Positions 12,307-39,440 of a stretch of DNA of 40,000 nt are shown piece by piece. Location of the stretch: the NCBI RefSeq assembly GCF_002949735.1, contig NZ_CP026681.1, positions 5,660,771 to 5,700,770 of the forward strand, read 5' to 3'. The stretch's first letter is position 1, and each line of letters begins with the position of its first letter. The translations under genes were made by a program, and so were the position numbers. The DNA is from Nostoc sp. 'Peltigera membranacea cyanobiont' N6. GTDB taxonomy: Bacteria; Cyanobacteriota; Cyanobacteriia; Cyanobacteriales; Nostocaceae. The notes under the pieces were generated by a model. That model saw nothing but the letters and a program-made list of their open reading frames with translations, was not told the origin of the DNA and searched no databases.

Positions 12307-13107
12307 ATGACAGACACAAAGATTCAGGGGAAGTTCTACCCGCTCCAACATGAAGAATGGCTAAGAGCCTGCCGGGAACTAACCCCAGCACAGAGGGATG
12401 TACTCTACTACCTTCGCACTCTCGACCCATACAGCACCGGAATGGAAGTATCACCCTCAAGGATTGCCAAGGATTTATCTACCGCAGAAAAGCCAGTTCA
12501 CCGCAGCACTGTAGGGCGTGCCCTCAAAGCGTTGGATGAAAAGGGATTTGTCGATATGGAGCTTCTTAAGGTTAAGGTTCACGTTCTTACCAAAGGCTTG
12601 CACTGTTGCGATGAGGCAACAAGTTGTGATGAGGCAACAGGTTGTGATGAGGCAACAGGTTGTGATGAGACAACTTTGTTGCCTGACGGCAACTTAGGTG
12701 ATCATGACGCAACTTGCGCGATCGCTACGCAACTTGCGCGATCGCCACGCAACAAGCACGAGCCAGAAGTATTGCCAGATAAAGATTCCAGCACACCTAA
12801 GATTAATAAGACTTATTTAGAATTTATAGACTCTCTCTCAGAAACCGAGCGAGCGAATTTTTTGAATTTTTGTGAGGAAAAGACAAAGAATCTTAGCCAG
12901 CCAGTGAATGACATTGAGGCTTGGTTAGCTCACACCACTAAAGCTGGACAGAACCGTTGGGAAGTTTATTACAAAAAATTTGTTACGTACCAACAAGCCG
13001 AGTCCAAAAAATCTCAAAGTAGCCGTAGCAGTCAAATGAAAAAGTTTCAAGAGGAACTTGAGCAACAACGACAGCAAGCTATGTCCATGTACGGCAACAC
13101 AGTATGA
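12307..13107 (+). CDS. putative plasmid replication initiator-like winged-helix protein
   Basis: Winged-helix-like segment SRIAKDLSTAEKPVHRSTVGRALKALDEKGFV. Internal DNA repeats are present. The gene sits directly upstream of dnaB. Confidence 0.5.
   Translation: MTDTKIQGKFYPLQHEEWLRACRELTPAQRDVLYYLRTLDPYSTGMEVSPSRIAKDLSTAEKPVHRSTVGRALKALDEKGFVDMELLKVKVHVLTKGLHCCDEATSCDEATGCDEATGCDETTLLPDGNLGDHDATCAIATQLARSPRNKHEPEVLPDKDSSTPKINKTYLEFIDSLSETERANFLNFCEEKTKNLSQPVNDIEAWLAHTTKAGQNRWEVYYKKFVTYQQAESKKSQSSRSSQMKKFQEELEQQRQQAMSMYGNTV
12607..12757. repeat. iteron-like repeat block inside the Rep-like ORF (3.5 x 18 bp, then 2.5 x 20 bp, all with GCAAC cores)
   Basis: 18-bp units tgYgatgaggcaacaRgt start at 12607, 12625 and 12643, with a partial unit at 12661. 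20-bp units acgcaacttgcgcgatcgcY start at 12707 and 12727, with a partial unit at 12747. Confidence 0.85.
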
Positions 13108-13132: not shown

Positions 13133-14506
13133 ATGGCTGAACAACTAAGTTTTCATTCTTCAGGTAGCGATCGCCTGCCACCCCAAAATATTGAGGCGGA
13201 AGAGGCGATTTTAGGCGGTATCATGCTTGACCCAGAAGCAATAGGTAGAGTGAGCGATTCTTTGATTCCAGAAGCTTTTTACATCAGCGCTCACAAAGAT
13301 ATCTATCAAGCAGCGCTGCGCCTTCACAGCCAGGGTAAACCTACAGACTTGCTCTCTGTCACCAGTTGGCTGACTGACTATGAAATACTAGTCCGTATTG
13401 GCGGGAGAAATAAATTAGCAACTCTGGTAGACCGCACGGTGTCAGCTGTGAACATCGACGCTTTGGCAGGGTTAGTAATGGAAAAATACCTGCGGCGGCA
13501 GTTAATCAAGGCTGGCAATGAAATTGTGCATCTGGGTTACGAAACTGAAACTGAGTTACCCAAAATCCTTGACCAATCGCAACAGAAAGTATTCCAGCTT
13601 TCTAACCAAAGCTTTGGTTCAAACACCGAACACAACAGCACAATTACTATTGCAGCTTACAAGGAATTAGATTCAGGAAGCCCTATCTACTCTACAGGAC
13701 TTGATGAACTCGATAATTTAATGGTTGGATTTGAAGGCGGTACGCTCACCATAGTTGCGGGTAGACCGTCAATGGGAAAGTCCCAGATTTCGTTGCAACT
13801 AGCTCTCAAGATGATATTGCTCCACGATTTACCTGTGGCTATCTTCTCGCTGGAGATGACAAAGAAACAATTAGAGTACAGGCTGTGGAGTTTAATTAGC
13901 GTCACCAATGCCTACAAACATTTAGGATTAACGCCACTAAGGAGCGATCGCATCCGCAGACATCGAGCCAAATTTCAACCTTTAGCAGATTGGGAATTCA
14001 CGCTTATTGCCAAAATCGTTGATATTGCCTCAGAACTGCCGCTTTATATGAATGATTCAAGGGGCATCACCGTTTCACAAATTGCATCAGAATGCCGTCA
14101 AATTAAGGCCAAAGAGGGAAAACTGGGGTTAGTTGTAGTTGATTACCTGCAAATGATGGCAGAGGACTCTGGAGTCAACCGCAGCTATGAACTAGGAGAT
14201 GTGGCCAGGGGACTTTACAAAATGGCAGGGGAACTGGATGTACCCGTGTTAGCACTGTCGCAAATCTCTAGGGGAGTTGAGGGCAGACAGAATAAGCGCC
14301 CAATGATGAGCGACCTTAGCCAATCGGGAATTTTAGAAATGGTTGCAGACAATATTATTCTCGCTTACCGGGATGAGTACTACAACCCAGACACTACAGA
14401 GCAAGGAATATTAGAACTCATCATGGCTAAGGCACGACACGGCGAAACAGGCACAGCAACGGTATTTTTTGACAAGTCCTATGGAATTATCCAGAATTTG
14501 CGGTGA
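13133..14506 (+). CDS. dnaB: replicative DNA helicase DnaB
   Basis: N-terminal PPQNIEAEEAILGGIMLDPEA, Walker A GRPSMGKSQ, Walker B VVVDYLQMM and SQISRGVE. The length (457 aa) is typical. Confidence 0.95.
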   Translation: MAEQLSFHSSGSDRLPPQNIEAEEAILGGIMLDPEAIGRVSDSLIPEAFYISAHKDIYQAALRLHSQGKPTDLLSVTSWLTDYEILVRIGGRNKLATLVDRTVSAVNIDALAGLVMEKYLRRQLIKAGNEIVHLGYETETELPKILDQSQQKVFQLSNQSFGSNTEHNSTITIAAYKELDSGSPIYSTGLDELDNLMVGFEGGTLTIVAGRPSMGKSQISLQLALKMILLHDLPVAIFSLEMTKKQLEYRLWSLISVTNAYKHLGLTPLRSDRIRRHRAKFQPLADWEFTLIAKIVDIASELPLYMNDSRGITVSQIASECRQIKAKEGKLGLVVVDYLQMMAEDSGVNRSYELGDVARGLYKMAGELDVPVLALSQISRGVEGRQNKRPMMSDLSQSGILEMVADNIILAYRDEYYNPDTTEQGILELIMAKARHGETGTATVFFDKSYGIIQNLR

Positions 14507-15284
14507 TGGAATATCGGAGTCCTCAAACTCCTGTCAAAACCATCCGCCTCCTGTATCGGAACTTTTACTGGGGGGTATTGATAATAGCCCTAGTAAAAAT
14601 TTTGAAGAAGTAGGGATACCCCCCAGTAAAAATAGCCCTAGTAAAAACTCTCAACAAATAGAGATAACTCCAAGTATTGACAACCCTAGTAAAAAGCGCA
14701 GAAATTGGGGTGAGGGTAACGGCACTATTCATTGGCGCACTATTACTAGGGGTGGAAAGGACTATCCCCAGGCTTATTATCATTGGCAGGAAAAAGGGAG
14801 CAAGAAGACCAAGTACATTCCCAAGCATTTACTGGGGGATATTCAAGAAGCAGAGTTCAGGAAGCGCCCAATTATAGAAATTTTGATATTACTGGGTGTT
14901 GTGCCTAGCCCTAGTAAAAACACATTACTGGGGGATATCGAAAACAGCCCTAGTAAAAATAGACGACACAAAGAAATACCCCCCAGTAAAAATAACCCTA
15001 GTAACGATGTCGAACAGTCAGAAATATCCCCCAGTAAAAATAACCCTAGTAAAACTAGACGACACAAAGGATTAGGTAGTGGCTCCATTCAGTGGAAAAC
15101 CATCACCCTTCACGGCAAAGATTATCCCCAAGCTTGGTATCACTATGAGTTTTGGAAAGATGGCGATCGCTTGGTTAAAAAGTGCAAGTATATTCCAAAA
15201 CGATTATTAGGGAGAATAGAGAAGCTAGAAGCAAATAAAGCGCCAGTCAAAGAGATTTTGTCAATATTGCGAGTAAAATTATAG
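14469..15284 (+). CDS. PSKN-repeat protein with an internally duplicated C-terminal-type domain
   Basis: About 10 PSKN/PSK motifs. A duplicated module is present (GxGxIxWxTITxxGKDYPQAxYHxxxxxxGxxxxKxKYIPKxLLGxI). The start is uncertain, with ATGs at 14469 and 14481, and the ORF overlaps the dnaB 3' end. Confidence 0.6.
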   Translation: MTSPMELSRICGDGISESSNSCQNHPPPVSELLLGGIDNSPSKNFEEVGIPPSKNSPSKNSQQIEITPSIDNPSKKRRNWGEGNGTIHWRTITRGGKDYPQAYYHWQEKGSKKTKYIPKHLLGDIQEAEFRKRPIIEILILLGVVPSPSKNTLLGDIENSPSKNRRHKEIPPSKNNPSNDVEQSEISPSKNNPSKTRRHKGLGSGSIQWKTITLHGKDYPQAWYHYEFWKDGDRLVKKCKYIPKRLLGRIEKLEANKAPVKEILSILRVKL

Positions 15285-15646: not shown

Positions 15647-16036
15647 ATGCCTAAATGGAAACTAGTAACAGAATTTACATTTGATAGCGCCCATTACATT
15701 AAAGATTATGATGGGCCATGTGGTAGGATGCACGGGCACAGTTACAAAGTGCGAATTGAGGCAACATCATCGAAGCTACACTCTTCACAATATTGTCCCC
15801 ATCCAGTTATGGTTGCTGATTTCAAAACCTTACGCTGGGCTAAACAAGACGTTACAAAAGGCGGGCTAGATCATTGTGTTCTCAATGAGGTATTGCCTCC
15901 TGAGTATGAAACGACAGCGGAGATGATTGCCAAATACATCTATGACGTAACTAAGAAGCAAGTGCCTTCTGATGTGCAGCTAAAAGTTGCAGTATCAGAA
16001 ACCTCCAATTCTTGGGTAGAGTATGAAGATGACTAA
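15647..16036 (+). CDS. queD: 6-carboxy-5,6,7,8-tetrahydropterin synthase (QueD/PTPS family)
   Basis: EFTFDSAHYIKDYDGPCGRMHGHSYKVRIE, then LDHCVLNEV, TAEMIAKYIY and VAVSETSN. These are collinear with E. coli QueD motifs. Confidence 0.9.
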   Translation: MPKWKLVTEFTFDSAHYIKDYDGPCGRMHGHSYKVRIEATSSKLHSSQYCPHPVMVADFKTLRWAKQDVTKGGLDHCVLNEVLPPEYETTAEMIAKYIYDVTKKQVPSDVQLKVAVSETSNSWVEYEDD

Positions 16037-18203
16037 ATCACCCTTAACAAAACCCTTGGTTTCAACTAGCACAATTTCATGCCCTCGTATACTAATTATT
16101 ACTTCTTGTACTGGAAAAAAGCTTCATAACCCAACAAATCAGCTGACAATAGAAGATTTTAAAGACACAGAGAGATTAAAAGAACGCACACAATCACTTT
16201 CAGAATTCTCTTGTCCGTCTGGCCAGATGTACACAGGGCTGCAACATCTACGGCTAATGGAGGGGGTGGATATCCTGCGATCTGCCCTTGGCGGCAGCGC
16301 TTCGCTATCGCATTTTGGAAAAGAAGCAGTGGATGTAAAAATCATTTCAGCAGGTTATGGGCTAATCCCGGAAGACAAAGCGATCGTTCCCTACTCTGTC
16401 ACCTTTAATTCGATGAAGAATGATGAAGTCTATTCGTGGGGGAATTATCTCAGAATCCATGAAGATTTTCAACAGGAAATTGTCGGATATGATTTAATAT
16501 TTGTCTTACTTGGGGATAAATACCTGCGTACTTTAAAGCTACCAGTTAAGACTCATTCCCACCAAACTTTCATTTTTTTTGCTTCAAATAAAAGTATAAA
16601 TTATATAGATTCAGGTAATGCCAAGCTATTAACTTTAACTCTTTCCAATAAGTCTGCATCGCGTTTTAGCTGTGCCTTAGTGGGTTTAAAGGGGCATCTG
16701 CTAAAGCTGATTGCTACTGAAGCCAGCAGAGTTTCACATTTATTGGAAAGTATATATAATAATCCAGAAACATTAGAAGAACTTCTAAATAAACAACCAA
16801 ATCCGTTAGAACTACCTCTTGGAATTTCATTTTCAACGGAGAGGAAATTAAATTTTCAGAATAAAAGCCATAGAAAAAGTAAATATACAGAAGAAGAGTT
16901 ATGTTCTATTCTAAAATTACCAGTTGCAGTTAATCAGCATTTAAAAATGCAATATTTTATTCCTGAATGGGATGATAAAGTAGATGCTGGATATGACTTT
17001 TTACAGGATAAATTTAGTCCTAATCGTAAGGCTTGCAAAGATGACATTTATGCTCATGAAGAAAAAATATATGAAAAGCCCAACTATGACGGTATTTTAG
17101 TATCTAAGATAGTTGTTGATAAGAGAAAATCCAAAAGAAATGATATAGAAGCAGCAGGAGGCATCCAAAAATATTTAAAATTCTCAGGAGAAATTATGGG
17201 GGATTGTGGAGCTTTTGGATATATCAAGCAGCCAGAACCTCCATATAATACTATAGAAATTTTAGATTATTATCAGCGGCTAGGCTTCCATTATGGGGTA
17301 AGTATTGACCACTTAATTGTTGGTCCATTTGCACAGCCTGGAATTAGAGAAGAACGTTACGATCTTACTTTGCGAAACGCAGAGGAATTTATATCAAAAC
17401 ACCAAAAATTTGGATATACATTTACCCCTATTGGTGTCGCTCAAGGTTGGAGTCCTGAAACTTATGCTGAGGCAGTAAAAAAACTGGTTGAAATGGAATA
17501 TGACTATATTGCTATAGGAGGAGTTGCCAGGACACCAACCATAGAAATTCTAGAAATATTGAAAGAAGTTTATCAACATTTAACATCCAAAACTAGATTA
17601 CATTTATTTGGAGTAGGACGTATTGATGCTCTTCCTTATTTCCGCCATTTGGGGGTAACTAGTTTTGACTCAGCAAGCCCATTACGTAAAGCTTGGTTTG
17701 ATGCAGTAGAGAATTATCATACTTTAAGTGGTAAAGCTTACGCTGCTGTGCGTATTCCTTTTGTAGATAAGCAGTCACAACGAATTAAACATTTGTTATC
17801 GTCAGGTTATGAACGTGAAACTCTCAAGCAGCTTGAGCAAGAAGCATTAAAAGCTATTCGGGAATATGATAAAGGCAATATATCACTAGATGAATCTCTT
17901 AAGAAATTACTTGCTTACGATGAGTTATTAGAATTACCTCGCGACGGTATAGTAAACCCGACAGCTAAAGCTAGGCGTTTAAGACAACACACTCAATTGT
18001 ATAGGGAATTATTAGAAGTAAAACCTTGGCAGGAATGTGAGTGTAAAATCTGTCAAAACCCAGACTGTAGAGTAGAAACAATTATTTTTCGTGGTAATGA
18101 CCGTAATCGTAGACGTGGTTTTCACAACACTTATGTATTTTATAAGCGGTTTCGAGAATTTCTGAATGCTGAAAATTGTAATATTGATAGTACGAAAGAG
18201 TAA
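16023..18203 (+). CDS. dpdA: fusion protein: N-terminal YaaA/DUF328-like (or DUF6884-like) domain plus C-terminal TGT-fold DNA transglycosylase-like (DpdA-like) domain
   Basis: N-terminal half: ILIITSCTGKK, MYTGL, IISAGYGLIPEDKAIVPYSVTF and FVLLGDKYLRTL parallel YaaA's [35 protein letters not shown] and NLASDEYFKSV. C-terminal half: YFIPEWDD, GDCGAFGY (TGT DSGGFQ), IAIGGVAR (GGLSVGE), VTSFDSASP (catalytic Asp segment), and the zinc site CECKIC...GFHN (CxCxxC...H). The ORF overlaps the queD stop by 8-14 nt. Confidence 0.7.
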   Translation: MKMTKSPLTKPLVSTSTISCPRILIITSCTGKKLHNPTNQLTIEDFKDTERLKERTQSLSEFSCPSGQMYTGLQHLRLMEGVDILRSALGGSASLSHFGKEAVDVKIISAGYGLIPEDKAIVPYSVTFNSMKNDEVYSWGNYLRIHEDFQQEIVGYDLIFVLLGDKYLRTLKLPVKTHSHQTFIFFASNKSINYIDSGNAKLLTLTLSNKSASRFSCALVGLKGHLLKLIATEASRVSHLLESIYNNPETLEELLNKQPNPLELPLGISFSTERKLNFQNKSHRKSKYTEEELCSILKLPVAVNQHLKMQYFIPEWDDKVDAGYDFLQDKFSPNRKACKDDIYAHEEKIYEKPNYDGILVSKIVVDKRKSKRNDIEAAGGIQKYLKFSGEIMGDCGAFGYIKQPEPPYNTIEILDYYQRLGFHYGVSIDHLIVGPFAQPGIREERYDLTLRNAEEFISKHQKFGYTFTPIGVAQGWSPETYAEAVKKLVEMEYDYIAIGGVARTPTIEILEILKEVYQHLTSKTRLHLFGVGRIDALPYFRHLGVTSFDSASPLRKAWFDAVENYHTLSGKAYAAVRIPFVDKQSQRIKHLLSSGYERETLKQLEQEALKAIREYDKGNISLDESLKKLLAYDELLELPRDGIVNPTAKARRLRQHTQLYRELLEVKPWQECECKICQNPDCRVETIIFRGNDRNRRRGFHNTYVFYKRFREFLNAENCNIDSTKE

Positions 18204-18252: not shown

Positions 18253-19080
18253 ATGAATATTGAACATAAGTTCCTTCCAGTATTTTCAGTAGACTGGTTA
18301 GGTTTATTCAATAGATTAAGGAATTTACAAGGTAATTACGGTATCTTGGCACCTATCTCATCTAACAAAAGTCTTTTAAGAGATATCCGTAATTTTAATA
18401 AACCTTTTTTTATAGATAGTGGCGTTTTTGGTAATCAAGATTTTCCTTGGTATTATGAAACATATTCTGAATACTTTTATAATCGTTGGGTACGTAAACG
18501 AAAATTTGCTTCTGAACAACATTTGCGGCATAAAATCAGAGAATATCTAGAACGCTGCGATCAATTTTCGCCTGATTTTATTTTTACACAAGATATTTTT
18601 GGAGAGCCATTACTATCACTTCATTTAGCTAGATTAACTTGGGAAGAGTATTGGCAAAAGCCAAGGAAATATACTTTGATTGGTGTTGTTCAAGTAGGAT
18701 ATTCAATTTATAATTGGCAACAAAAGTTGGTTCCTCAATTAAATTCTTTTCCTCCTCATTATGATTCACCCAAAAGTTTTTTAACTTCTTTGATTAGTGT
18801 TTATCGGGATATTGGTTATGATTACATCGCCTTGGGCGGATTGTTGAAAGTTGATAAAACTAGAACTACAGGCTTAAAATTTGGTTTGTCTGTAGAGCAA
18901 CTTGATGAACTATTAGCTTGGAGCCGACCAGAATTTGTCTTGGGAGGACTGTCGTTAACCCGAACAGAAGTGTTGAGAAAACACAATGTCTGGGCAGATT
19001 CTACTGGTTGGTTGTGGTGGAACGAGCAATATGACAGCAAGTTTCGTAACAGGAATGGTTTCCAAGAAGTTTTAATGTAG
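18253..19080 (+). CDS. second, short TGT-fold (DpdA-like) paralogue lacking the C-terminal zinc site
   Basis: FFIDSGVFGN (DSGGFQ-like), YIALGGLLKV (GGLSVGE-like) and VWADSTGW (FDSxxP-like Asp). The protein ends without a CxCxxC...H motif. Confidence 0.5.
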   Translation: MNIEHKFLPVFSVDWLGLFNRLRNLQGNYGILAPISSNKSLLRDIRNFNKPFFIDSGVFGNQDFPWYYETYSEYFYNRWVRKRKFASEQHLRHKIREYLERCDQFSPDFIFTQDIFGEPLLSLHLARLTWEEYWQKPRKYTLIGVVQVGYSIYNWQQKLVPQLNSFPPHYDSPKSFLTSLISVYRDIGYDYIALGGLLKVDKTRTTGLKFGLSVEQLDELLAWSRPEFVLGGLSLTRTEVLRKHNVWADSTGWLWWNEQYDSKFRNRNGFQEVLM

Positions 19081-19485: not shown

Positions 19486-22400
19486 ATGATAACACTTGGT
19501 TCGTTGGTACGTTCCCGAAACAACAGCTTGGGCATAGGGAAGGTAATCGATATATCTGATACCCAGGCAAATGTTGAGTATTTTTGCTCAGTTGGGCAAC
19601 GGATAGAAAAAAGCTTACCCTTAAGTTCGCTATCTCAGTTGAAACTAGAGCGCCAAACTCGATGCTATATTTACCCGGAAAGCCAAGAAGCATGGCTGAT
19701 TGGCAGAATTTACGAGTGGGATGAGGAACTTTATCAGTATCGCATTGACTTACCTGATAAAAAGACGATCGCAGTTAGCGAAGAACAAGTATACGTGCGT
19801 TGCAATTTACCTCAAGCAGACCCCATCGAGACTCTAGCAATGAAGGGGCAAGAAACGCCCTATTTTCACGATAGACGCTTTGCTTTTGTTAAATGCTTAA
19901 TTTTACAACGCGCTGTCAGTCGGGGAATGACGGGATTAATTTCCGCCAATATTAAGCTTTATCCACATCAAGTTGAAGTTGTCCGTCGTGTACTCGAAGA
20001 TCCGATTCAACGATATTTATTAGCGGATGAAGTTGGACTGGGAAAAACCATCGAAGCTGGTGCTATTCTTCGTCAATATTTATTAGATGAACCTTCTGGA
20101 CGTGCGGTAGTGCTAGTTCCGCAATATTTACTGGAACAATGGCAGCAGGAATTAGAAAATAAGTTTTACATCTCCCACTTTCTCAAACGGGTAGCAGTGC
20201 TGGCGGTTGAGGATATCCACAAAATCAACCCAAAAGCGAATATTGGCTTGCTAATTTTAGATGAAGCACACCACATTGCAGCAATGGCGACTTCTAAGGA
20301 TACAACTGTGCTACAGCGTTTTGAGACTTGCAAAAATATTGCCCATAAAAGCGATCGCCTGCTTCTACTCTCGGCTACCCCGGTTCTCAACCACGAGCAG
20401 GATTTTCTCGCCATGCTGCATCTGCTCGATCCGACAACCTATAAACTTGATGACTTAGCAGGTTTTCGTGAAAGGGTAGTAAAACGCCAAGATATTGGTC
20501 GAATTCTCCTGTCATTTAAAGAAGGTGCAAACCCTTTCGTCTTGAAAACTAATCTCAAAAATCTCCGTAACCTGTTTGCTCAAGATAACTATTTACTGGA
20601 ATTGGCTGACAATCTAGAAAATAGTTTACAAGCAAAGGCTGGCGATACAGTTGAAATTGTCAGGGCAATTCGTATCCATATTAGCGATACCTACAGACTT
20701 CACAGAAGGATGCTTCGCAATCGTCGTGCTTCTGTAGAAGATGTAATTTTTGACCGTAATATTACACTGAGAACTGAGTATGATTTAGATGAGCGATCGC
20801 CTGACATCCACGAACTAATTGAAGAGTGGCGTGATGTAGCTCCTGATGACAAACAATATCACCACATTTTTTTATTGTTTTTCCGTGCTTCTGGTACTTG
20901 GCTGGGTATTTTAAAACAGGTAATTCAAGCACGTTTAAGTAGTGAGACAGCGCTGCGGGAGGGTTTCCCTCCGCAGGCGACTGCGTTCCCCGAAGGGGTT
21001 CTCGAAGAGTACACGAAGGGTATATCCACTGCGGAATTAATTCAGGAGTTTGGCGCTGATAGTGTTCGCATCCTGACTGAAACTCCTAAATTTGCTGGGG
21101 AAGCAGAGATTTTGCAAAGCCTACTGCAAATTATAGAACAACCTTCAGAGGATGGCGATCGCCTTGAATTACTCAAGACAGTTATCCTCTATCAACTCTG
21201 CGAACCTTTAAAATTACAATCCTTGAAATCCAACCTCCCTAAATTGCTTGCAGAGGTTCAAAAACGGCTAAAAAGACCGATGCCGGGAGATAGTCTGCCC
21301 AAAATTGTTATATTTACCAGTTTTGTGCAAACTTGCGCTGAAATTGTCCGTTATTTGAGCGATCGTTTTGGTGAGGGGACTATCGTCAGTCATCAAGTTG
21401 GACAAACTCCCTCTCAAGTAGAGGAGAACTTAAATCGGTTTAAAAAAGACCCCAAATGCTTTATTTTAGTTTGCGACTCCTCCGGCGAAGAAGGTCGTAA
21501 CTTACAATTTACCAACTACATGATATGTTTTGACTTGCCTTGGTCGCCAAATCGCCTAGAACAAAGAATTGGTAGGATAGATCGGATTGGTCGTCTATTG
21601 AAAGTTGAGTTTACAGTATTTGCTGGCGTAGACTTACCCGATAGTCTCCATGATGCATGGTATCGCTTATTAAAAGAAGGGTTTAATATCTTTAGACAAT
21701 CTATTGCTAGTCTCCAATTTTATGTAGATGAAAAATTACCTGTATTAGCAGAAATATTGTTTAAATCGGGTGCAAATGGACTATTAGAAAGTATAGAAGT
21801 AATTCAAAAAGAAATTGAGCAGGAACAAGTCAAAATTAGCGAACAGAACGCCCTAGATGAAATTGATGCTCTGGATGAGAATGCTACCCAATATTTTCAA
21901 GCTTTAGACGATTATGATGCCCGTCATCAGGAAATCCAGCAAGTAACTGAAGATTGGATTTGTGGTGCGTTGGGATTTGAGTCAATTACTAATCCTAATT
22001 TATCGGCACTAAAGCGTTATAAACCTACCGGAAATACATTAATTCCAGCAAATGATTTAAGCAGCAATTTTGCACGGGTTTTAGAAGAATTTGGGACTTT
22101 TAACCGTAGGGTAGCAAATCAACAGCTTGGTGCAAAACTCTACCGCATTGGTGAAAAATTTGTAGACGCACTATCATCTTATATTCATTGGGACGACCGG
22201 GGTCAAGCCTTTGCTATGTGGCGAGTTGCAGAAACTTGGGATTCTGGGGAAGGTGAAGAGTGGTATGGTTTCCGATTGAATTACGTTATTGAAACAAATT
22301 TAACGAATTACAAAAACACCACAAAAGATAAAACTTTGCAAAGACGCGTAGATGGGTTATTCCCTCCAATTGTAGAAAGTGTATTTATTGATGCACGATA

Positions 22401-22869
22401 TGAACCAATGTGTGCGGTTGAAGATGAAACACTATTAAATATCTTGCAACGTCCTTATAATGGCAAGGGCGGTAAATATCGAGATTACAACTTAGCCAAA
22501 AGTCGTTTATCTATTCTTGATAATTTTATTGAGCCTAGCAGTTGGCAAGAATTTTGCCATCAGACGCGTGACACATCTTTAGAATTACTCAGTCAGCGTC
22601 CTGAATTTATTTCATTATGTGAAAATAGCGCCATCCGTGCTGGACAAAAATTAGGTAAGAGACTAGACCAATTGCGCTTGCGTCTCAACCGACTTACTAA
22701 CCAAGAGCGTATTTCTAATAACGTACTGGAGCAAGAACTCAATAACGAAATGGCATTAAACCAAGTAATTATCGAAGGAATTCGTCATCCTACCATTCGT
22801 CTTGATTCTGTTGGTTTTATTATCGTTTCTGGGCGACCTCCAGCTAAATCTGAGGAGGATGATTTATGA
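19486..22869 (+). CDS. dpdE: SNF2/RapA-family helicase, DpdE-like by position
   Basis: Motif I LLADEVGLGKTIEAG, motif II LILDEAHHI, motif III LLLSATP, motif V GEEGRNLQF, motif VI RLEQRIGRIDRIG. Confidence 0.8.
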   Translation: MITLGSLVRSRNNSLGIGKVIDISDTQANVEYFCSVGQRIEKSLPLSSLSQLKLERQTRCYIYPESQEAWLIGRIYEWDEELYQYRIDLPDKKTIAVSEEQVYVRCNLPQADPIETLAMKGQETPYFHDRRFAFVKCLILQRAVSRGMTGLISANIKLYPHQVEVVRRVLEDPIQRYLLADEVGLGKTIEAGAILRQYLLDEPSGRAVVLVPQYLLEQWQQELENKFYISHFLKRVAVLAVEDIHKINPKANIGLLILDEAHHIAAMATSKDTTVLQRFETCKNIAHKSDRLLLLSATPVLNHEQDFLAMLHLLDPTTYKLDDLAGFRERVVKRQDIGRILLSFKEGANPFVLKTNLKNLRNLFAQDNYLLELADNLENSLQAKAGDTVEIVRAIRIHISDTYRLHRRMLRNRRASVEDVIFDRNITLRTEYDLDERSPDIHELIEEWRDVAPDDKQYHHIFLLFFRASGTWLGILKQVIQARLSSETALREGFPPQATAFPEGVLEEYTKGISTAELIQEFGADSVRILTETPKFAGEAEILQSLLQIIEQPSEDGDRLELLKTVILYQLCEPLKLQSLKSNLPKLLAEVQKRLKRPMPGDSLPKIVIFTSFVQTCAEIVRYLSDRFGEGTIVSHQVGQTPSQVEENLNRFKKDPKCFILVCDSSGEEGRNLQFTNYMICFDLPWSPNRLEQRIGRIDRIGRLLKVEFTVFAGVDLPDSLHDAWYRLLKEGFNIFRQSIASLQFYVDEKLPVLAEILFKSGANGLLESIEVIQKEIEQEQVKISEQNALDEIDALDENATQYFQALDDYDARHQEIQQVTEDWICGALGFESITNPNLSALKRYKPTGNTLIPANDLSSNFARVLEEFGTFNRRVANQQLGAKLYRIGEKFVDALSSYIHWDDRGQAFAMWRVAETWDSGEGEEWYGFRLNYVIETNLTNYKNTTKDKTLQRRVDGLFPPIVESVFIDARYEPMCAVEDETLLNILQRPYNGKGGKYRDYNLAKSRLSILDNFIEPSSWQEFCHQTRDTSLELLSQRPEFISLCENSAIRAGQKLGKRLDQLRLRLNRLTNQERISNNVLEQELNNEMALNQVIIEGIRHPTIRLDSVGFIIVSGRPPAKSEEDDL
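20941..21018. repeat. GC-rich short dispersed-repeat-like element embedded in-frame in the SNF2 helicase ORF
   Basis: gagacagcgctgcgggagggtttccctccgcaggcgactgcgttccccgaaggggttctcgaagagtacacgaag has an imperfect hairpin, ctgcgggaggg-ttt-ccctccgcag (20953-20976). It encodes SETALREGFPPQATAFPEGVLEEYTK. Its composition is unlike the rest of the gene. Confidence 0.45.
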
Positions 22870-25415
22870 TTGACTCATTCTCAGAACTTCGGGAAATTCT
22901 CAAAACAGGTAAAATTCCTGAAGATATTAGCCATGTTTCAGAAGCCTGTCATCGGCGCTTGTTGGATGCACTGCGAAACTCGCCTGGGTCTGCGGATATT
23001 GTTAGTCTAGTGCGTCATGTGTTGCGACGGGAAGATGAAAAACAAGGTGGAAGTTCTGCAACGACTCTTTTAGTACCCCGCAAATCGCCTTTTCCTAATC
23101 GCAGTATTTGGGAGTCGGCTAGCATAACCGTGCTGCGCGAAGATAAAGAACACTATCTCATTAGCGCCCGTCCTTGGCAACCAGAATGGCTTGACCTGGC
23201 TGACCAATATCCGCCAGATGCACCTTTATTTAAAGAAGAAAACCGGCGGAATTATGAACCAGTTGCGGGCGACCCGTTTTTGCAACTCGTAGAGCTAGAC
23301 GCTTATCGTAGTATTGGACAGCGTGAAGCAATTCGCGCTGTTTTGACTGCTCCTGATAATTCAACTTTAGTAATTAACTTACCTACGGGTGCTGGAAAAA
23401 GCCTTTGCGCTCAATTACCTGCATTGCTGAACTCCAGAAATAATAATGGTGTCAGCGTGGTAGTTGTTCCGACTACAGCATTGGCTATTGACCAACAACG
23501 GGCATTAAAACCTTTTGTACACCATGCCACAGCTTATTATAGCGATGATTCTGTCGAGGGTAAAGAAAGAAGAGAAGGGATACGCGATCGCATTCGCGCC
23601 GGAACCCAAAGGATAATTTTTACCTCTCCTGAAAGTTTAATGGATTCTCTGGCATCTGCTCTGTATGAAGCAGCCAAACTAGGGATATTACGGTATTTTA
23701 TTATCGATGAAGCGCACATGGTAGAGCAATGGGGTGATGATTTTCGTCCCGCCTTTCAAGAAATTCCTGGTTTGCGAAGAGATTTATTGCGTCTTAATTC
23801 TTTCACAACTTTATTGCTAACAGCAACTTTAACAGAATCTTGTTTAGATACCCTGGAAACATTATTTGGTCAAGATTTACAAGTTATATCTGCTGTACAG
23901 TTGCGACCAGAGCCTGCTTATTGGTTTAAGAAATGTGAGACTGAAGAACTTAGAAAAGAAAGGCTACTTGAGGCAGTCTATCATCTTCCCCGTCCGTTAA
24001 TTATTTACGGAACTAAAGTTAAAGATGTAGAGGATTGGAAACGAGAATTAACCCGCGCTGGATTTAAAAGATGTGACCTGATGACAGGTAAATCTACTCC
24101 TCAGCAACGGGAGCAACTAATTGAAACATGGCGAGAAGGAAAGATTGATATAGTTGTTGCTACTTCTGCCTTTGGATTAGGTATTGACCAATCAGGTGTC
24201 AGAGCAGTAATTCATGTTTGTATTCCCGAAACCATTGACCGTTTCTATCAAGAAGTTGGACGGGGAGGAAGGGATGGAAAAGCATGTATGTCGCTAACAT
24301 TATATACAACTGAGGACTTCGGAATTGCTCGTGGTTTAAACGAAAAATCGACAATTACTATCGAGAGAGGATTGCAGCGTTGGCAAAGTATGTTTGCGAA
24401 AAAAGAACCCCTAAAAGACGGTAAATATCGCGTGCCTATTAATAATCCTCCCTCTTTACTAGAAACAGATATTGATATGCGAAGTGACCAAAACAGGGCT
24501 TGGAATATCCGCACTTTAACGTTGATGAACCGAGCAAATCTAATTGAAATCGACTCAGAAGAACCTCCCCAGAAAAAAAACTCTGAATCAGAATCTGAAG
24601 AAGCTTATCAAGCAGCTTGGGATTTATACCGAAATTCTCGTAGTATTCGTATCCGCAATCAGCTTCACTTAGAAAAATTCACTTGGGAATCTGAAGTTGA
24701 ACCAGTGCGCCAGGAACGCCAAAACTGGAGTTATAAAAATCTGCAACTAATGAAAGAGGCTTTAAAAGCTAAACGTTGTATTTCAGAAATATTTGAGGAA
24801 GCTTATAGTATTCCCTCACGTCACACTCCAGAAACCAGAAGTCCAGTGAGAGCCTATCGCGCTTGTGGGGGTTGTCCTGTTTGTAGAGAAAATGGGGTGA
24901 AACCGTTTCCAGGAATTATGCCTGGAATTATGCCTGAACCAAGCTCCGTTTGGCAAAAACCAAAATTTTTTGTCGGTGAAGAACTGCAACGCTTGTTGTT
25001 GGGCGATAATTTAATGCTTATTTTTTATGAATATTTAGAAGATAAAAGTAGGAAGCGCCGCATAAATAAAGTGTTGAAATGGTTTGTAGAACAAGGGATG
25101 ATAAATATTATTATCCCTTGTGAGTTACAGGAAACATTGATTAAGGAAGTAAACAGAATTCCAAACGCTTTCATATTTTTATGGGAAACCTATCAGCCAA
25201 GAAAAATGCCACATATTCCTACTCTTATTTTCCATCCTGAAGCAGAACAATTACCTTACAATTATTTATCAAAAAATAGTATGTTTAAGGCTCCGCGCGT
25301 TATTTTACTACCTAAAGATACACCAGATCCCAGTCGAACTGACCGACGACTGATTGATATTTTTTCAGGACGGCAGTTTAAATTTGACTCCTTTTCTACG
25401 GAGATTGGTGTATGA
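22866..25415 (+). CDS. dpdF: RecQ-like DEAD/DEAH-box helicase with ~330-aa C-terminal extension, DpdF-like by position
   Basis: Motif I NLPTGAGKSLCAQLPAL, motif II FIIDEAHMVEQWGDDFRPAF (RecQ DEAHCxSQWGHDFRPxY), LLTATL, VATSAFGLGIDQSGVRAVIH and YQEVGRGGRDG. A Cys cluster CGGCPVC is present. Confidence 0.8.
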   Translation: MIDSFSELREILKTGKIPEDISHVSEACHRRLLDALRNSPGSADIVSLVRHVLRREDEKQGGSSATTLLVPRKSPFPNRSIWESASITVLREDKEHYLISARPWQPEWLDLADQYPPDAPLFKEENRRNYEPVAGDPFLQLVELDAYRSIGQREAIRAVLTAPDNSTLVINLPTGAGKSLCAQLPALLNSRNNNGVSVVVVPTTALAIDQQRALKPFVHHATAYYSDDSVEGKERREGIRDRIRAGTQRIIFTSPESLMDSLASALYEAAKLGILRYFIIDEAHMVEQWGDDFRPAFQEIPGLRRDLLRLNSFTTLLLTATLTESCLDTLETLFGQDLQVISAVQLRPEPAYWFKKCETEELRKERLLEAVYHLPRPLIIYGTKVKDVEDWKRELTRAGFKRCDLMTGKSTPQQREQLIETWREGKIDIVVATSAFGLGIDQSGVRAVIHVCIPETIDRFYQEVGRGGRDGKACMSLTLYTTEDFGIARGLNEKSTITIERGLQRWQSMFAKKEPLKDGKYRVPINNPPSLLETDIDMRSDQNRAWNIRTLTLMNRANLIEIDSEEPPQKKNSESESEEAYQAAWDLYRNSRSIRIRNQLHLEKFTWESEVEPVRQERQNWSYKNLQLMKEALKAKRCISEIFEEAYSIPSRHTPETRSPVRAYRACGGCPVCRENGVKPFPGIMPGIMPEPSSVWQKPKFFVGEELQRLLLGDNLMLIFYEYLEDKSRKRRINKVLKWFVEQGMINIIIPCELQETLIKEVNRIPNAFIFLWETYQPRKMPHIPTLIFHPEAEQLPYNYLSKNSMFKAPRVILLPKDTPDPSRTDRRLIDIFSGRQFKFDSFSTEIGV

Positions 25416-26320
25416 GTGTACTCAAAGAACCTCTCGCTACACCCAGTAGAGTTAGAGGCATTTTTAGATACTTATTACAAAAAAAAGGACAAAAGGAGAA
25501 AAGAGAAGTTTTAGAAAAAATTCTTTCTCCTGATGAACTTGTGAAAGACGCGCCTTCTGGTCGCCCTATGTTCCGTAAAACAATCAATCAAATAAAAAAT
25601 AGAATCGTCAATGGAGTTCACAATATAGGTCTTTTGATTGAAGAGGAAGATGAAATAGCGATAAATCCAAGTCTTACCGAGGATTCTATAAATCCTCAAA
25701 TTGGTGACCAATTATTACCTAATACACTAGCTACCCTATTTTTTGCCTCTGGTAATACAGATGAGGAAGACTTTGGTCTTGTTTGTGCTTGGTACTTGGC
25801 ACAAAATATTTATGATGCTCCTGGAAATTGGGAAGCGATTCAAAATCAGGTCAGTGAACAACAAGTTGGTGAGTTACTAAGAATGACGAATAGCACTCTT
25901 TACGGTCAAATGGATGACTGGATGTGCTACATGGGTTTAGCTTGGGGCCATGCTTTGGGAGGAAAAAGAGTAACTGTTCCTGACCCTACGCTTTATATAA
26001 AACGAAATTTGAAGAATTTATTCAATGATCAGGTTGGTGCAAAACTTCTCATTCGAGAATTTATTGATAGATTAGCAAAAAAATGCCCTCTATTTGAAAC
26101 AGGTAAGTTTCGAGAAATAATTGAAATAAATATTGGTGGCCGTCAACTTAATTATTTATCTACTAGCACTGCGTTTGCTTTGTTTCGCTTACGAGATGAA
26201 GGTTATATCCAGCTTAAAAGAGAATCTGATGCTGACCTAATGATTCTACCAAAAGCGAATAACCAAGTCGATGATGATGGGCGAATTTCTCATATTACTT
26301 GGCAAGGAGAGAACTCATGA
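25412..26320 (+). CDS. hypothetical protein in the DpdG position
   Basis: ATGA start/stop overlaps at both ends tie it to the neighbouring genes. No motif recognised. Confidence 0.5.
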   Translation: MSVLKEPLATPSRVRGIFRYLLQKKGQKEKREVLEKILSPDELVKDAPSGRPMFRKTINQIKNRIVNGVHNIGLLIEEEDEIAINPSLTEDSINPQIGDQLLPNTLATLFFASGNTDEEDFGLVCAWYLAQNIYDAPGNWEAIQNQVSEQQVGELLRMTNSTLYGQMDDWMCYMGLAWGHALGGKRVTVPDPTLYIKRNLKNLFNDQVGAKLLIREFIDRLAKKCPLFETGKFREIIEINIGGRQLNYLSTSTAFALFRLRDEGYIQLKRESDADLMILPKANNQVDDDGRISHITWQGENS

Positions 26321-29300
26321 CTTTTGAAAAGTTTGTTTGCTGGAATTTGGAAAGAGTTCGCCGGGTTATGGATGTGGAAGCAACCCAACCCCCAAATCAT
26401 CTGTTTTTGGCGACTCACCATCCCATCGCCATGTATCGCCAAGAACTTATAAAGGCATCATCGCAGATTGAATACGATGAGCAGAAATTCCTCAAGGATT
26501 TTCTCGCAGAAAAAGATTTTGCTTTCGTGCCAGTTTTAGGCGGTTCTGGTACAGGTAAATCGCACCTAATACGTTGGTTGGCGGCTAATATAAAATCGAC
26601 GGAGAAACGCAAGGTATTATTGATTCCTAAAATCGGTACAAATCTGAAAGATATTGTCAGTCTTATCCTCGAAGGTATGGAGGGAGAAAGATTTGATGAA
26701 TACCGGGAAAGAGTAAAACGAGCAACTAATACCTTAACTGAAACTCAGGCGCGGGTACAACTTCTCAATCAACTGGCAGCAGCAGTAGGTGATGATGGGA
26801 AACGTGATAGAACGCAACTAACTGATGAGCATAATTACCTCATTGATGAGCTTGATTCTCTTCTATATGACCCATTTTTTCGGGAACATTATTGGCTTCG
26901 AGATAATGGTATTATTCATCGCTTAGTCATCCATATTTTGGGACGTAGAGATACGGTAGAGATTGTCGAAGAAAGGCGAGAATTTTCTATTGATGACTTG
27001 CCTAATAACCTTTTATATTTGGAAAAAGCTGGAGAAAGGTCTCGAAGTTTTTATACTGAGCTTTGGAGTAGCGATGAAATCAAGAAAATAACCGTAGACT
27101 GGTTGAACCAGCACCTAAATGAAGCCATTACCCAAGTGTTGAATTTGGGTCGGGAAGACCTGCGAAGATTAATGTGCGAAGTTCGGGAGATATTGGCAGA
27201 ACAAAATGTCGAATTAGTTCTGTTAATTGAAGACTTTGCGAAGTTACAAGGTATAGACCTAGAAGTATTAGAAGCAGTTTTGGCACGACCTCAACAATTA
27301 GGAAGTAAACCAATGTGTGCCATCCGCACGGCCTTGGCTTGTACTACAGGTTATTTTGAGAGTTTAATTGATACAGTAAAACAGCGTCTTACCTTCAGTG
27401 TTAATCTTGATGTTGGCACAGTTGGGGATCAATCTTTAATTACCCAAGATGATATTCAAGACTTTGTTGCTAGATATCTGAATACAGTTCGTTTAGAAGA
27501 TAAAGTTATTCTTGATTGGGCAACTTCTAACAATCACGAAGATAATTTTCAAAATGAACCTCTTGTAAGTGCTTGTAGCGATTGCGAACACCGCGAAGCT
27601 TGTCACGCTGGTTTTGAAAATGTGAATGGAATAGGTTTATATCCTTTTACACCCAAAGCTTTAGAGCAAATGCAGCATAGAGTTAACACTGGTAATTTTA
27701 ATCCGCGAATTTTGATTAAAGATGTGTTGAAGTACACTCTTGAAAATGGATTAGATAATATTAAAAAAGGGCTTTTTCCTTCTGTAAGCCTGCGAGAGCA
27801 TTTCGGTAAAATGCGGCTGAGTGCGATGTTACAGGCAGACATAAAAGCTAAAGATCCCCAAAACTTTGACCGTCGTGAAATACTAATAGATTTATGGACT
27901 GACAGCAATGAGCTTTGTGATTTACCCATACAAATTCACACAGCTTTAAATCTACCTCCGCTTGGAGTCAAAATTAAGCAGACTGAAATTAAGCGTGTTA
28001 TACCACAATCTCAAATTAGTCATGTACTACCACGAGTCACAGAAGCTGTAAAAAGCTATCAAACGACACGTGAAGAAACAGAAGATGTTCAGAAAGAAAT
28101 TCTTCCAAATAAACTAGCAGAACAAATAAAGCTTTTAGATAATTGGAACAATCAAGAAATTTTACATCAAGACTTAGGAAAACCACTACGCGAATTTATT
28201 TATCCTGCAATTATTGAAAGAATTAATTGGGATTCAGAGATTTTGCTTCAAGGAAGTTTTGCCAGATCCTCCAAGTCACGGGAGGATGTTGATAAAGGTA
28301 ATAAAATTTTTAAACAAAGAAATATAGTCTTTTATAGTCCAAGGGTTACAAGAGAAACAATTGCTGGAGTGAAGTTATCACTTCCGCTTAATCCTGATGA
28401 TGTGGACGAGTTTCGTACAACTGCGATCGCCTTTCAAGGTATCCTACTATATAGCCATTATAAAAACTGGAAGTTTGAAAATGGCGATCGCTATTTCCGT
28501 ACCTACACTCGACAATTAGAAAAATGGAGCCAGTACGTCTTAGAGCAAATTCGCCTTTACCCTCGTGAGTTTGGAGAAGCTTGGAACCCAGTACCAGCAG
28601 CAGTAGAATTACTGGCGATAACCTCCACGATGGCGGGACATCCTACAAATTCCTTGGAAGACGTGATTAATGCTTTGTTTTTAGACGTAGAAAATAATAA
28701 CGATGAAAATCGTGCTTTAAGTTGGAAACAATTATTTAAATCACTCAAAAAATATCGTAAAGACTTATTAGAAATTGTTCAAAGTCGAATTGCTTGTACC
28801 AAAGGAAGCTCAACCCAATTTCAAATTATTGATGCAATCCAAATTATCGAACCTCTAGAGAAGGTTAGAAAAACTTGGCAGCCTCAATGTGAAATTCCCG
28901 AAGATATCCGCGATAATAAACTTTTCCAGGATATCTACAAAGCACGCCAGCAAGTAGATGAACTCCTAGAGAAAGCTATCGAAGAAGAGTACGAACGACA
29001 GTTAGATATCTATCAGCGTCTAATATCCGAATTGGGAGAAAACATTAAGACAAAGGATGTTATTGACGCTCTCAAAGCTGCAATGGAAGCTGCACAAGAT
29101 GCAGCTGTATTTCGTGGACAAAAAGACTTTGATGGTATGACAAATGTGTTAAATAAATTCATGCCAAGAGCAATTAAAACTTATAGAGACACAATGAAGC
29201 GTGTACAAACGGAGAAAGAAAATCCAGAAAGTAACATCGGTAAATTACTTCAGTACTTGAGTGAAGATTATCAAAATGTCATTACTACTTCTTCAGAATT

Positions 29301-29472
29301 CATTGACAACACTAATGATTTTTTGCATACTTCGATTCTTGAAGTAAAAAGTCGTATTGTGGAGTTAGAACAATCTGGTGGTACAACGAGAGAATCTAGT
29401 CATAAAGAAATTCGTGATGGTTTAGCTAATTTACGGATTCTAATGAATGAAATTAAAGGAGATACAAAATGA
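26317..29472 (+). CDS. large P-loop NTPase in the DpdH position
   Basis: Walker A VLGGSGTGKSHL, Walker B-like VLLIEDFAK, and a Cys/His cluster CSDCEHREACH. I prefer the ATG at 26317 (RBS aaggagag; ATGA overlap with the upstream stop) to the TTG at 26299 given in the ORF track. That gives 1051 aa, against 1057 aa from the track's TTG. Confidence 0.6.
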   Translation: MTFEKFVCWNLERVRRVMDVEATQPPNHLFLATHHPIAMYRQELIKASSQIEYDEQKFLKDFLAEKDFAFVPVLGGSGTGKSHLIRWLAANIKSTEKRKVLLIPKIGTNLKDIVSLILEGMEGERFDEYRERVKRATNTLTETQARVQLLNQLAAAVGDDGKRDRTQLTDEHNYLIDELDSLLYDPFFREHYWLRDNGIIHRLVIHILGRRDTVEIVEERREFSIDDLPNNLLYLEKAGERSRSFYTELWSSDEIKKITVDWLNQHLNEAITQVLNLGREDLRRLMCEVREILAEQNVELVLLIEDFAKLQGIDLEVLEAVLARPQQLGSKPMCAIRTALACTTGYFESLIDTVKQRLTFSVNLDVGTVGDQSLITQDDIQDFVARYLNTVRLEDKVILDWATSNNHEDNFQNEPLVSACSDCEHREACHAGFENVNGIGLYPFTPKALEQMQHRVNTGNFNPRILIKDVLKYTLENGLDNIKKGLFPSVSLREHFGKMRLSAMLQADIKAKDPQNFDRREILIDLWTDSNELCDLPIQIHTALNLPPLGVKIKQTEIKRVIPQSQISHVLPRVTEAVKSYQTTREETEDVQKEILPNKLAEQIKLLDNWNNQEILHQDLGKPLREFIYPAIIERINWDSEILLQGSFARSSKSREDVDKGNKIFKQRNIVFYSPRVTRETIAGVKLSLPLNPDDVDEFRTTAIAFQGILLYSHYKNWKFENGDRYFRTYTRQLEKWSQYVLEQIRLYPREFGEAWNPVPAAVELLAITSTMAGHPTNSLEDVINALFLDVENNNDENRALSWKQLFKSLKKYRKDLLEIVQSRIACTKGSSTQFQIIDAIQIIEPLEKVRKTWQPQCEIPEDIRDNKLFQDIYKARQQVDELLEKAIEEEYERQLDIYQRLISELGENIKTKDVIDALKAAMEAAQDAAVFRGQKDFDGMTNVLNKFMPRAIKTYRDTMKRVQTEKENPESNIGKLLQYLSEDYQNVITTSSEFIDNTNDFLHTSILEVKSRIVELEQSGGTTRESSHKEIRDGLANLRILMNEIKGDTK

Positions 29473-30170: not shown

Positions 30171-30193
30171 AATAAAGTAAGGGCAGGGCAAGG

Positions 30194-38382: not shown

Positions 38383-38385
38383 ATT

Positions 38386-39042: not shown

Positions 39043-39170
39043 ATTTTTATCCTTTGCATAGAATAATTTAAGCGTGGTATCATCACACTCCTCCACAACA
39101 CTATAATCCACAACGCTATAATCATTGATTAATTGAGGCACAATAGAACCAAAGGCACTGTGAATACACA

Positions 39171-39440
39171 ATGACTACTCAATTGATGGTTCAACCCTCA
39201 TCCTTAATGTCTTCTGGTATCAGGATGAGCGAATTCGGTGATATTTATCTTTTTAAATTTACCGATGAGCTACAGTCTCGCTTTGAAGAACTGTTGCAGA
39301 AGAAAAAAGCTGATGCGCTCACTCCTGAAGAAGAAGCTGAATATGTAGGCATTTCCGAACTTGAGCGAATATTTACCTTGATTAACGCTCAACTAGCAGC
39401 CAAAAGTAAATGGTGTCCGAACAAACTCGAAGACTTGTAA
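39171..39440 (+). CDS. hypothetical small protein preceding the HNH endonuclease
   Basis: ORF overlapping the HNH gene start by 31 nt. No motif recognised. Confidence 0.4.
   Translation: MTTQLMVQPSSLMSSGIRMSEFGDIYLFKFTDELQSRFEELLQKKKADALTPEEEAEYVGISELERIFTLINAQLAAKSKWCPNKLEDL

Follow-up and report, generated by a model that had tools for sequence, protein, structure and literature searches.

The Dpd island and the T275 gene

We analysed a stretch of 40,000 nucleotides from Nostoc sp. 'Peltigera membranacea cyanobiont' N6 (contig NZ_CP026681.1, positions 5,660,771 to 5,700,770 of the forward strand; hereafter the window, whose own coordinates are used below), a plasmid-like cyanobacterial segment that carries on the + strand a Dpd island, which modifies DNA with 7-deazaguanines and restricts DNA. 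As currently described, Dpd is an 11-gene system (dpdA to dpdK) with a single transglycosylase that needs DpdB. The subject of this study is the product of a 275-residue open reading frame (ORF) within this island, a minimal protein with the fold of the tRNA-guanine transglycosylases (TGT), which we label T275 ('mini-DpdA-like'); it is related to enzymes that exchange guanine for 7-deazaguanine bases. The island consists of the following parts:

15647 to 16036, + strand: QueD (6-carboxytetrahydropterin synthase), with which the modification operon begins (Pfam PTPS, 1e-28; TIGR03367)
16023 to 18203, + strand: 726-residue fusion of a DpdC-like domain (DUF6884, residues about 20-196) and a canonical DpdA (residues 309-712, with zinc motif) (NCBIfam DpdA, 4e-138)
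18253 to 19080, + strand: T275, zinc-less minimal TGT-fold protein (ORF with ATG start, homologues, structure model, Foldseek, hhalign, substitution rates)
19486 to 34717, + strand: restriction module of dpdE, dpdF, dpdG, dpdH, a dpdI-like gene and dpdJ (NCBIfam, PADLOC)

The assignment of the 726-residue fusion is further supported by Pfam matches to TGT and DUF6884, a PADLOC match to DpdC, and a match to the DpdA of S. Montevideo (PDB 7UI4) with an E-value of 7e-83. T275 adjoins this gene and is tightly linked to it, with no terminator found between dpdA and T275 in the window. The view of the initial annotation that a second, minimal TGT-fold paralogue without the zinc site lies beside the 726-residue enzyme is borne out. 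We found no dpdB, dpdD or dpdK in the 40-kb window, even when DpdB was sought at relaxed E-values, nor a dpdB remnant in the 405-bp spacer between T275 and dpdE. No Rfam family, such as the preQ1 riboswitches, was detected in the window.

T275 has 128 homologues with 49-98% identity, all of which are cyanobacterial, annotated as hypothetical and devoid of a Pfam domain; the closest match (98% identity) is from a Nostoc sp. The ratios of nonsynonymous to synonymous substitution rates (dN/dS) in pairwise comparisons with orthologues range from 0.11 to 0.18, indicating purifying selection, which also holds in islands that lack DpdB. On the basis of these homologues and dN/dS values, T275 is a real and conserved gene. 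No model in Pfam, NCBIfam, PADLOC or PHROG captures this family, and our literature search found no paper describing it; within the TGT/DpdA superfamily it stands as a novel variant.

T275 is a member of the TGT/DpdA superfamily

Searches with the T275 sequence alone returned little. It has no Pfam TGT match and reaches neither the curated cutoff of PF01702 nor that of TIGR00449. In NCBIfam it matches DpdA only, at 12.8 bits (E 0.038), where the cutoff of NF041059 is 200 bits. The DpdA profile is found at E-values of 0.02-0.04 across about 30 residues, and NCBIfam, PADLOC and PHROGs together yield marginal DpdA/TGT matches with E-values of 0.02-0.35. A phmmer search of the PDB with the single sequence returned nothing, a hidden Markov model (HMM) of the family alone gave just a chance match to NKG2-D in the PDB, and hhalign of T275 against a single DpdA sequence gave a probability of 4%.

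Homology of T275 to TGT and DpdA is established by four independent lines of evidence. One is the AlphaFold 2 (AF2) model built from an alignment of 39 sequences, which shows a complete (beta/alpha)8 barrel with a mean predicted local distance difference test score (pLDDT) of 85.9 and a predicted template modelling score of 0.85; in a Foldseek search of the PDB, the top 50 matches to this model are all Z. mobilis TGT (E 5e-8 to 7e-6, probability 1.0). Another is that a profile searched against 1.84 billion representative proteins recovered very few full-length clusters of the family together with a halo of distant relatives at E-values of 6e-9 to 7e-4; these relatives in turn match the DpdA model at 1e-6 to 1e-13. 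The remaining two are profile comparisons. The hhalign alignment in local mode of the T275 family with the DpdA profile has a probability of 93.6% (E 2e-7) over 202 columns, spanning T275 residues 3-261, and rises to 99.2% (E 2.6e-19) when the distant relatives, which we call mini-TGTs, are added to the family; and for an HMM of T275 plus its stand-alone relatives, the top match among PDB sequences is DpdA 7UI4 (E 3e-6), followed by TGTs. Thus, the TGT fold that had been proposed for this protein has passed both the structure and the profile searches (Foldseek, top 50 TGT; hhalign, 94-99%).

Two other assignments were considered for T275. An origin as a recent duplicate of the DpdA barrel was ruled out, as the identity between the two is about 20% and the nearest relatives of T275 are the mini-TGT clade. 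T275 is not DpdD either, since it has no match to the 704-position model NF041061. At one of the related loci (L040), the T275 homologue is directly preceded by a separate DpdD of 751 residues (E 4e-148).

The active site is conserved in T275

The features identified along the T275 gene are listed below.

18271 to 18297, + strand: strand beta1, FLPVFSVDW (residues 7-15), counterpart of YFIPEWDD in DpdA (MAFFT, hhalign)
18406 to 18435, + strand: FFIDSGVFGN (residues 52-61), with D55 and F59 (alignment to 7UI4)
18454 to 18507, + strand: beta-hairpin, basic and aromatic (residues 68-85, YETYSEYFYNRWVRKRKF), in the place of Ins3 (AF2 strands 68-75 and 78-85)
18592 to 18594, + strand: codon of D114 (APDI/TQDI), predicted base-recognition Asp (alignments)
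18682 to 18699, + strand: GVVQVG, with Q147 predicted for the Watson-Crick edge (alignments)
18694 to 18768, + strand: family-specific loop (residues 148-172), inserted in comparison with DpdA and the mini-TGT relatives
18826 to 18852, + strand: IALGGLLKV (residues 192-200), predicted Gly-rich 7-substituent loop, GGLLK (alignment)
18994 to 19011, + strand: ADSTGW (residues 248-253), with D249 as predicted covalent nucleophile (alignments)

The length of the ORF and the places of the three motifs FFIDSGVFGN, IALGGLLKV and ADSTGW agree with the initial annotation. In contrast, the N-terminal FIPEWDD-type segment that it had reported as absent is present as FLPVFSVDW, which aligns as strand beta1, with F7 and P9 near-invariant in the family; only the Ins1 loop that follows this strand is missing.

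By alignment, each catalytic position of DpdA and of the Z. mobilis TGT has a counterpart in T275. D55 corresponds to D95 of DpdA and D102 of the TGT, the general acid/base, and F59 to F99 of DpdA, the base-stacking 'gate', the roles at this motif being taken from the DpdA study (PMC10164549). D114 corresponds to D130 of DpdA and D156 of the TGT, Q147 to H181 and Q203, and D249 to D256 and D280, respectively; the roles of D95, D130, H181 and D256 in S. Montevideo DpdA were assigned by mutagenesis and structure (PMC10164549). We scored conservation over 119 full-length T275 homologues, in which D55, F59, D114, Q147, G195-G196 and D249 are invariant (119/119), and in the AF2 model each of these active-site residues occupies the C-terminal end of the barrel strand expected for it. 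T275 thus keeps all catalytic residues and, judging from its sequence, is predicted to be catalytically competent. The DpdAs of the same loci, too, have invariant catalytic and zinc residues in a paired alignment, which argues that both enzymes are maintained.

The 7-substituent loop of T275 differs from that of its neighbour. IALGGLLKV aligns with IAIGGVART and ITMGGMVPL of DpdA; G195, G196, L197 and L198 are invariant, and residue 199 is K, R or Q. According to the rule that tells GGhsbb from GGhsG loops (PMC10164549), GGLLK(V/A) has none of the glycines typical of the preQ1/queuine enzymes, and it also departs from the preQ0-enzyme pattern GGhsbb, which the adjoining DpdA obeys (GGVART).

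T275 also differs from DpdA in what surrounds the barrel. Ins1, Ins2, Ins8 and the zinc site are all absent by alignment; the three insertions account for 30% of DpdA, including its DNA-contacting helical bundle, and together with Ins3 and the zinc site were described as conserved across the DpdA family (PMC10164549). As the initial annotation had noted, the protein ends before any CxCxxC...H motif; the whole 275-residue sequence contains no Cys motif, and it ends 22 residues past ADSTGW and 26 past D249. On the other hand, T275 has elements of its own. The hairpin at residues 68-85 is a family-specific insertion relative to both DpdA and the mini-TGT relatives, in which W79 is invariant and R81 is present in 108 of the 119 sequences. 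The Ins3 position flanks the substrate in TGTs, and this hairpin may contact nucleic acid. The loop at residues 148-172 is modelled with low confidence at 159-163 (pLDDT <50), and the C-terminal tail is rich in tryptophan, W253, W255 and W256 being invariant in 119/119 homologues.

T275 is embedded in Dpd loci of cyanobacteria

We scanned one genome per species plus metagenomes, and obtained 76 loci, which were reduced to 65 distinct T275 genes after de-duplication. All 76 are cyanobacterial save one metagenome-assembled genome (MAG), labelled 'uncultured Acetobacteraceae' (L003, contig CAZZZY010000340.1), which is 99% identical to the dpdA-T275-dpdE region of the window; as all other homologues are cyanobacterial, this label is probably a binning error. 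The positions of T275 relative to other dpd genes in the 65 distinct loci are as follows:

dpdA immediately upstream of T275: 42 of 65 loci
dpdD upstream of T275: 6 of 65 loci
dpdB co-directionally upstream of T275: 4 of 65 loci (with a 4-nt overlap in L034)
dpdB as immediate convergent downstream neighbour of T275: 29 of 65 loci
dpdB elsewhere in the T275 locus: 9 of 65 loci
dpdE directly downstream of T275, in a locus without dpdB (window type): 15 of 65 loci

In the 20 loci measured, the distance from the dpdA stop to the T275 start ranges from -7 to +97 nt; in the other architectures, T275 adjoins dpdB or dpdD. Overall, dpdB is present in 42 of the 65 loci. Three gene orders recur:

Architecture I (window type): QueD-C-A-T275-E-F-G-H-I-J
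Architecture II: C-A-T275 with B convergent to it, accompanied by a DpdJ-like helicase and a DpdK-like protein
Architecture III: ...H-I-J-K-D-T275 convergent with B

The island in the window lacks dpdB, dpdD and dpdK, yet its dpdE to dpdJ genes are intact, and since 15 distinct loci share this DpdB-less layout, it is a stable subtype rather than a local deletion. Pairwise distances of T275 and DpdA are correlated (r=0.92), with equal mean divergence.

Two loci have unusual arrangements. In L034 (8886-14023), dpdB overlaps the T275 homologue by 4 nt, and the pair is followed by a 1023-residue TPR-CHAT (Csx29-like) protein; it stands apart from dpdD, dpdK and dpdJ, which are located on the other strand. 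In L021 (319-7021), two copies of the QueD-DpdC-DpdA-T275 module face each other head to head and form an almost perfect inverted duplication containing frameshifted pieces of DpdC and QueD; this is a true palindromic duplication or else an artefact of the assembly.

Mini-TGT relatives outside cyanobacteria

The nearest relatives of T275 by HMM (E 6e-9 to 7e-4) are zinc-less mini-TGTs, most of which are fused to a DUF6884/DpdC-like domain. These fusions are found largely in methanogenic archaea and metagenomes, where they are annotated as 'YaaA' ('peroxide stress protein YaaA') or hypothetical. At E<1e-3 among the 1.84 billion proteins, the T275 HMM retrieves mini-TGTs and no canonical DpdA. 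The mini-TGT clade is a grouping defined in this analysis, and T275 shares its features: a barrel that ends shortly past the nucleophile, D(S/Y)xxW, a beta1 of the (F/P)FxV(D/N)R type, and no zinc site.

DpdC converts preQ0-DNA to ADG-DNA. The fusion of mini-TGTs to a DpdC-family domain and their adjacency to an ATPase, as DpdB is for DpdA, argue by analogy that members of the mini-TGT clade may themselves insert a base. In four loci (L043, L047, L048 and L049), the fusion is the third gene of an operon, preceded by a protein of about 610 residues of unknown function and then a DUF87/HerA ATPase of about 600 residues, and we found no DpdA or DpdB near any of these operons. Such a HerA-linked operon may be a stand-alone 7-deazaguanine DNA-modification module that has so far not been described.

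A different pairing of two TGT-fold proteins was seen on plasmid pNOS3756_2 of Nostoc sp. NIES-3756 (L045, 9933-22376). Here a DpdC-DpdA fusion is followed by a TGT paralogue of 315 residues (TIGR00449, E 1.7e-23), which is weakly related to T275 and located between two Hel308-like helicases; a HerA-like ATPase and an LlaJI-type endonuclease are adjacent, and dpdE to dpdK are missing. The locus looks to be a separate DpdA-based system that has a second TGT of its own.

Other features of the window

ParA, ParB, an actin-like ALP and DnaB are encoded at 6-14.5 kb of the window. Just upstream of dnaB, a 266-residue protein (12307-13107, + strand) with a LexA/winged helix-turn-helix-like N-terminus and a tandem 'CDEAT(S/G)' repeat may be a plasmid replication initiator. 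Downstream of DnaB, an ORF of 271 residues with a TTG start (14469-15284, + strand) contains two copies of a module of about 70 residues (G.G.I.W.TIT..GKDYPQA.YH...K.KYIPK.LLG.I...EA.K.P..EIL), separated by low-complexity 'PSKN' repeats; it matched no family. The Dpd island is followed by a MerR-like gene, by a restriction-modification enzyme of type IIG and by an HNH protein; the type IIG enzyme (1008 residues), an unassigned 218-residue protein and the PtuB/HNH-like nuclease (148 residues) occupy 35356-39856. The region reads as a defence island of composite make-up, carried by a plasmid-like replicon.

A possible second transglycosylase of the Dpd system

Based on sequence conservation, the structure model and analogy with its relatives, our favoured reading, to which we assign a probability of about 0.45, is that T275 might be a second, catalytically competent, zinc-less DNA 7-deazaguanine transglycosylase, that is, an extra modification enzyme of the Dpd system in cyanobacteria. 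It would probably serve sites or forms of DNA, or a 7-deazaguanine, that are not handled by DpdA, and this division is the most likely one because T275 has no Ins1/Ins8/zinc DNA clamp and has instead its own basic hairpin and Trp-rich tail. The initial annotation had offered the insertion of a different base as its alternative. With different sites included, this alternative fits the evidence best, the loop being GGLLK in T275 and GGVART in DpdA. Fold, homology, residue conservation, selection and synteny are direct results of the analysis, while the substrate (DNA), the chemistry and the division of labour with DpdA are inferred.

By homology, the chemistry of T275 would follow the double-displacement mechanism of TGT and DpdA. 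The target guanine nucleotide would be flipped into the mouth of the barrel, where D114 and Q147 would read the base's Watson-Crick edge and F59 would stack on this base. D249 is the predicted covalent nucleophile, and D55 would deprotonate N9 of the incoming 7-deazaguanine, so that the intermediate is resolved. The incoming base would be preQ0 or a close derivative supplied by QueD and the host pathway, and DpdB or DpdA might possibly help in the reaction.

Several observations weigh against a second transglycosylase. The TM-score between the T275 model and TGT in the Foldseek comparison is only about 0.5, and the isoelectric points of the family, with a median of 7.75, are not consistently basic. 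T275 is present in two of the four cyanobacterial DpdA plasmids of PLSDB, and as the other two lack it, it is not essential for Dpd in general. Moreover, the need for two transglycosylases in one island is unexplained.

Among the other explanations, the most probable is that T275 is an obligate partner subunit of DpdA in a hetero-oligomer, where it positions DNA or tunes specificity, with its own site acting in trans or merely binding the base. The gene lies directly after dpdA and at times overlaps the dpdA stop, its divergence tracks that of DpdA as described above, and in the dimers of bacterial and eukaryotic TGTs only one active site acts on the tRNA (PMC6165067). However, shared inheritance of the island also explains the co-divergence, S. 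Montevideo DpdA is a monomer that needs just DpdB and ATP (PMC10164549), and in about one fourth of the loci T275 stands beside dpdB or dpdD and is separated from any dpdA by 10 kb or more. The mini-TGT relatives, furthermore, exist without any DpdA, and invariant catalytic residues would be unexpected in a scaffold. We consider a partner subunit unlikely. In its more specific form, proposed initially, T275 would be a non-catalytic subunit resembling QTRT2 of the eukaryotic enzyme, but the comparison points the other way: QTRT2 retains its zinc domain, whereas its catalytic Asp residues are replaced (D279E, D105C) (PMC6165067), the reverse of T275.

An explanation that we regard as less probable still is a role like that of Cap10, in which the TGT pocket would bind a 7-deazaguanine on a protein or in DNA and would not modify DNA; such a 'reader' could sense for the restriction module whether modification is in place, or could transfer a protein linked to a base. 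Cap10 itself is a precedent, T275 has a similar D-S...D...Q...D pattern and no zinc site, and in one architecture T275 ends the dpdH-I-J-K-D restriction operon. Yet the predominant position of T275 is in the modification operon, in sequence it is closest to DpdA and to the DpdC-fused mini-TGTs, which suggests DNA chemistry, and the island encodes neither a QueC/Cap9-like conjugating enzyme nor a CD-NTase-like partner with a Gly-rich N-terminus. A functional replacement of DpdB by T275, as the title of the initial annotation had it, is hardly credible. In its favour is the dpdC-dpdA-T275-dpdE order, which the window shares with 14 further distinct loci, dpdB being absent from the locus each time, but the distribution contradicts it, for DpdB co-occurs with T275 in 42 of the 65 distinct loci, mostly as an immediate neighbour. 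T275 is also alike in both types of island, with 83-95% identity and dN/dS of about 0.15 in each. DpdB is a DndB/ParB-like (DGQHR) ATPase, whereas T275 is a TIM barrel with no match to DndB/ParB and no NTPase motifs.

Returning to T275 as a second transglycosylase, one may extend this reading tentatively, and with more doubt than confidence, to a new class of zinc-independent DNA transglycosylases comprising T275 and its DpdC-fused archaeal relatives, in which T275 would write a second mark. This mark could be a different 7-deazaguanine, or the base that DpdA inserts, placed at another sequence motif or in another DNA form; the GGLLK loop with its conserved Lys/Arg might suit a carboxy or amido substituent. 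If so, self-recognition in Dpd would rest on two enzymatically distinct marks.

If T275 does act as proposed, it would be a twelfth component of Dpd, conserved, apparently catalytically intact and unannotated. Cyanobacterial Dpd would then use two base-exchange enzymes, or a TGT barrel would work on DNA without the zinc/Ins8 DNA-binding apparatus, which is regarded as universal in DpdA. Since Pfam, NCBIfam and PADLOC are blind to the family, surveys of defence and modification systems miss it. The DpdC-fused relatives next to HerA ATPases suggest that 7-deazaguanine DNA-modification modules may be more widespread and include archaea, for which reports of 7-deazaguanines in DNA have until now concerned archaeal viruses (PMC10516641). 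As a minimal enzyme, T275 would also be an attractive scaffold to study or engineer DNA base exchange.

Comparison with known systems

T275 resembles DpdA (S. Montevideo, PDB 7UI4; NCBIfam NF041059) in its TIM-barrel TGT fold, its equivalent set of active-site residues and the beta1 motif, and it shares an island and an operon with a bona fide DpdA. However, with about 20% identity it lacks Ins1, Ins2, Ins8, the four-helix bundle and the zinc site, and it has its own hairpin (68-85), loop (148-172) and Trp-rich C-terminus, as well as GGLLK instead of GGhsbb. With the tRNA-guanine transglycosylases proper (Z. mobilis TGT, archaeal TgtA) it has in common the DSG(x)F, LD, GxxQ and GG motifs and the nucleophile Asp, but it has neither the lid formed by a beta-sheet at the N-terminus nor the zinc subdomain, and its context is DNA modification/restriction rather than tRNA. 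The QTRT1/QTRT2 heterodimer is similar in that two TGT-fold paralogues might cooperate; T275 differs in having kept the catalytic residues and lost the zinc domain.

Functional, or proposed functional, short or zinc-less TGT homologues provide precedents for T275 by analogy. Cap10 of type IV CBASS is a zinc-less member of the TGT family that has been repurposed for binding the NDG-modified N-terminus of a protein, with D73/S74, D122, K154 and D248 conserved. T275 is like it in the zinc-less fold, the association with a defence system, and the retained nucleobase-reading and nucleophile Asp residues, but Cap10 acts on a protein-linked base and bears no detectable sequence relationship to T275, the Cap10 models giving no match to T275 in PADLOC or the PDB. 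We found no Cap9 (QueC-like) protein and no CD-NTase with a Gly-rich N-terminus in the window or in related T275 loci. The short, divergent phage subfamilies DpdA3 and DpdA4 have been proposed to insert 7-deazaguanines in DNA (PMC10516641); T275, in contrast, is cellular and coexists with a canonical DpdA. Neither tblastn of phage genomes nor PHROGs gave a significant sequence match to T275, and a protein of 259 residues from Cellulophaga phiST, a candidate DpdA3, is a weak structural match at rank 10. The TGTs in HerA-centred BREX-related systems are a further precedent for divergent members of this family.

The mini-TGT-DUF6884 fusions are closest to T275: they share the PFFVVDR beta1, DSGxF, GVAQG, AIGGLL and WADSKGW motifs, the short C-terminal end and the loss of the zinc site. 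They differ from it in being fused to a DpdC-like domain, in having no Dpd restriction genes, and in lacking both T275 insertions.

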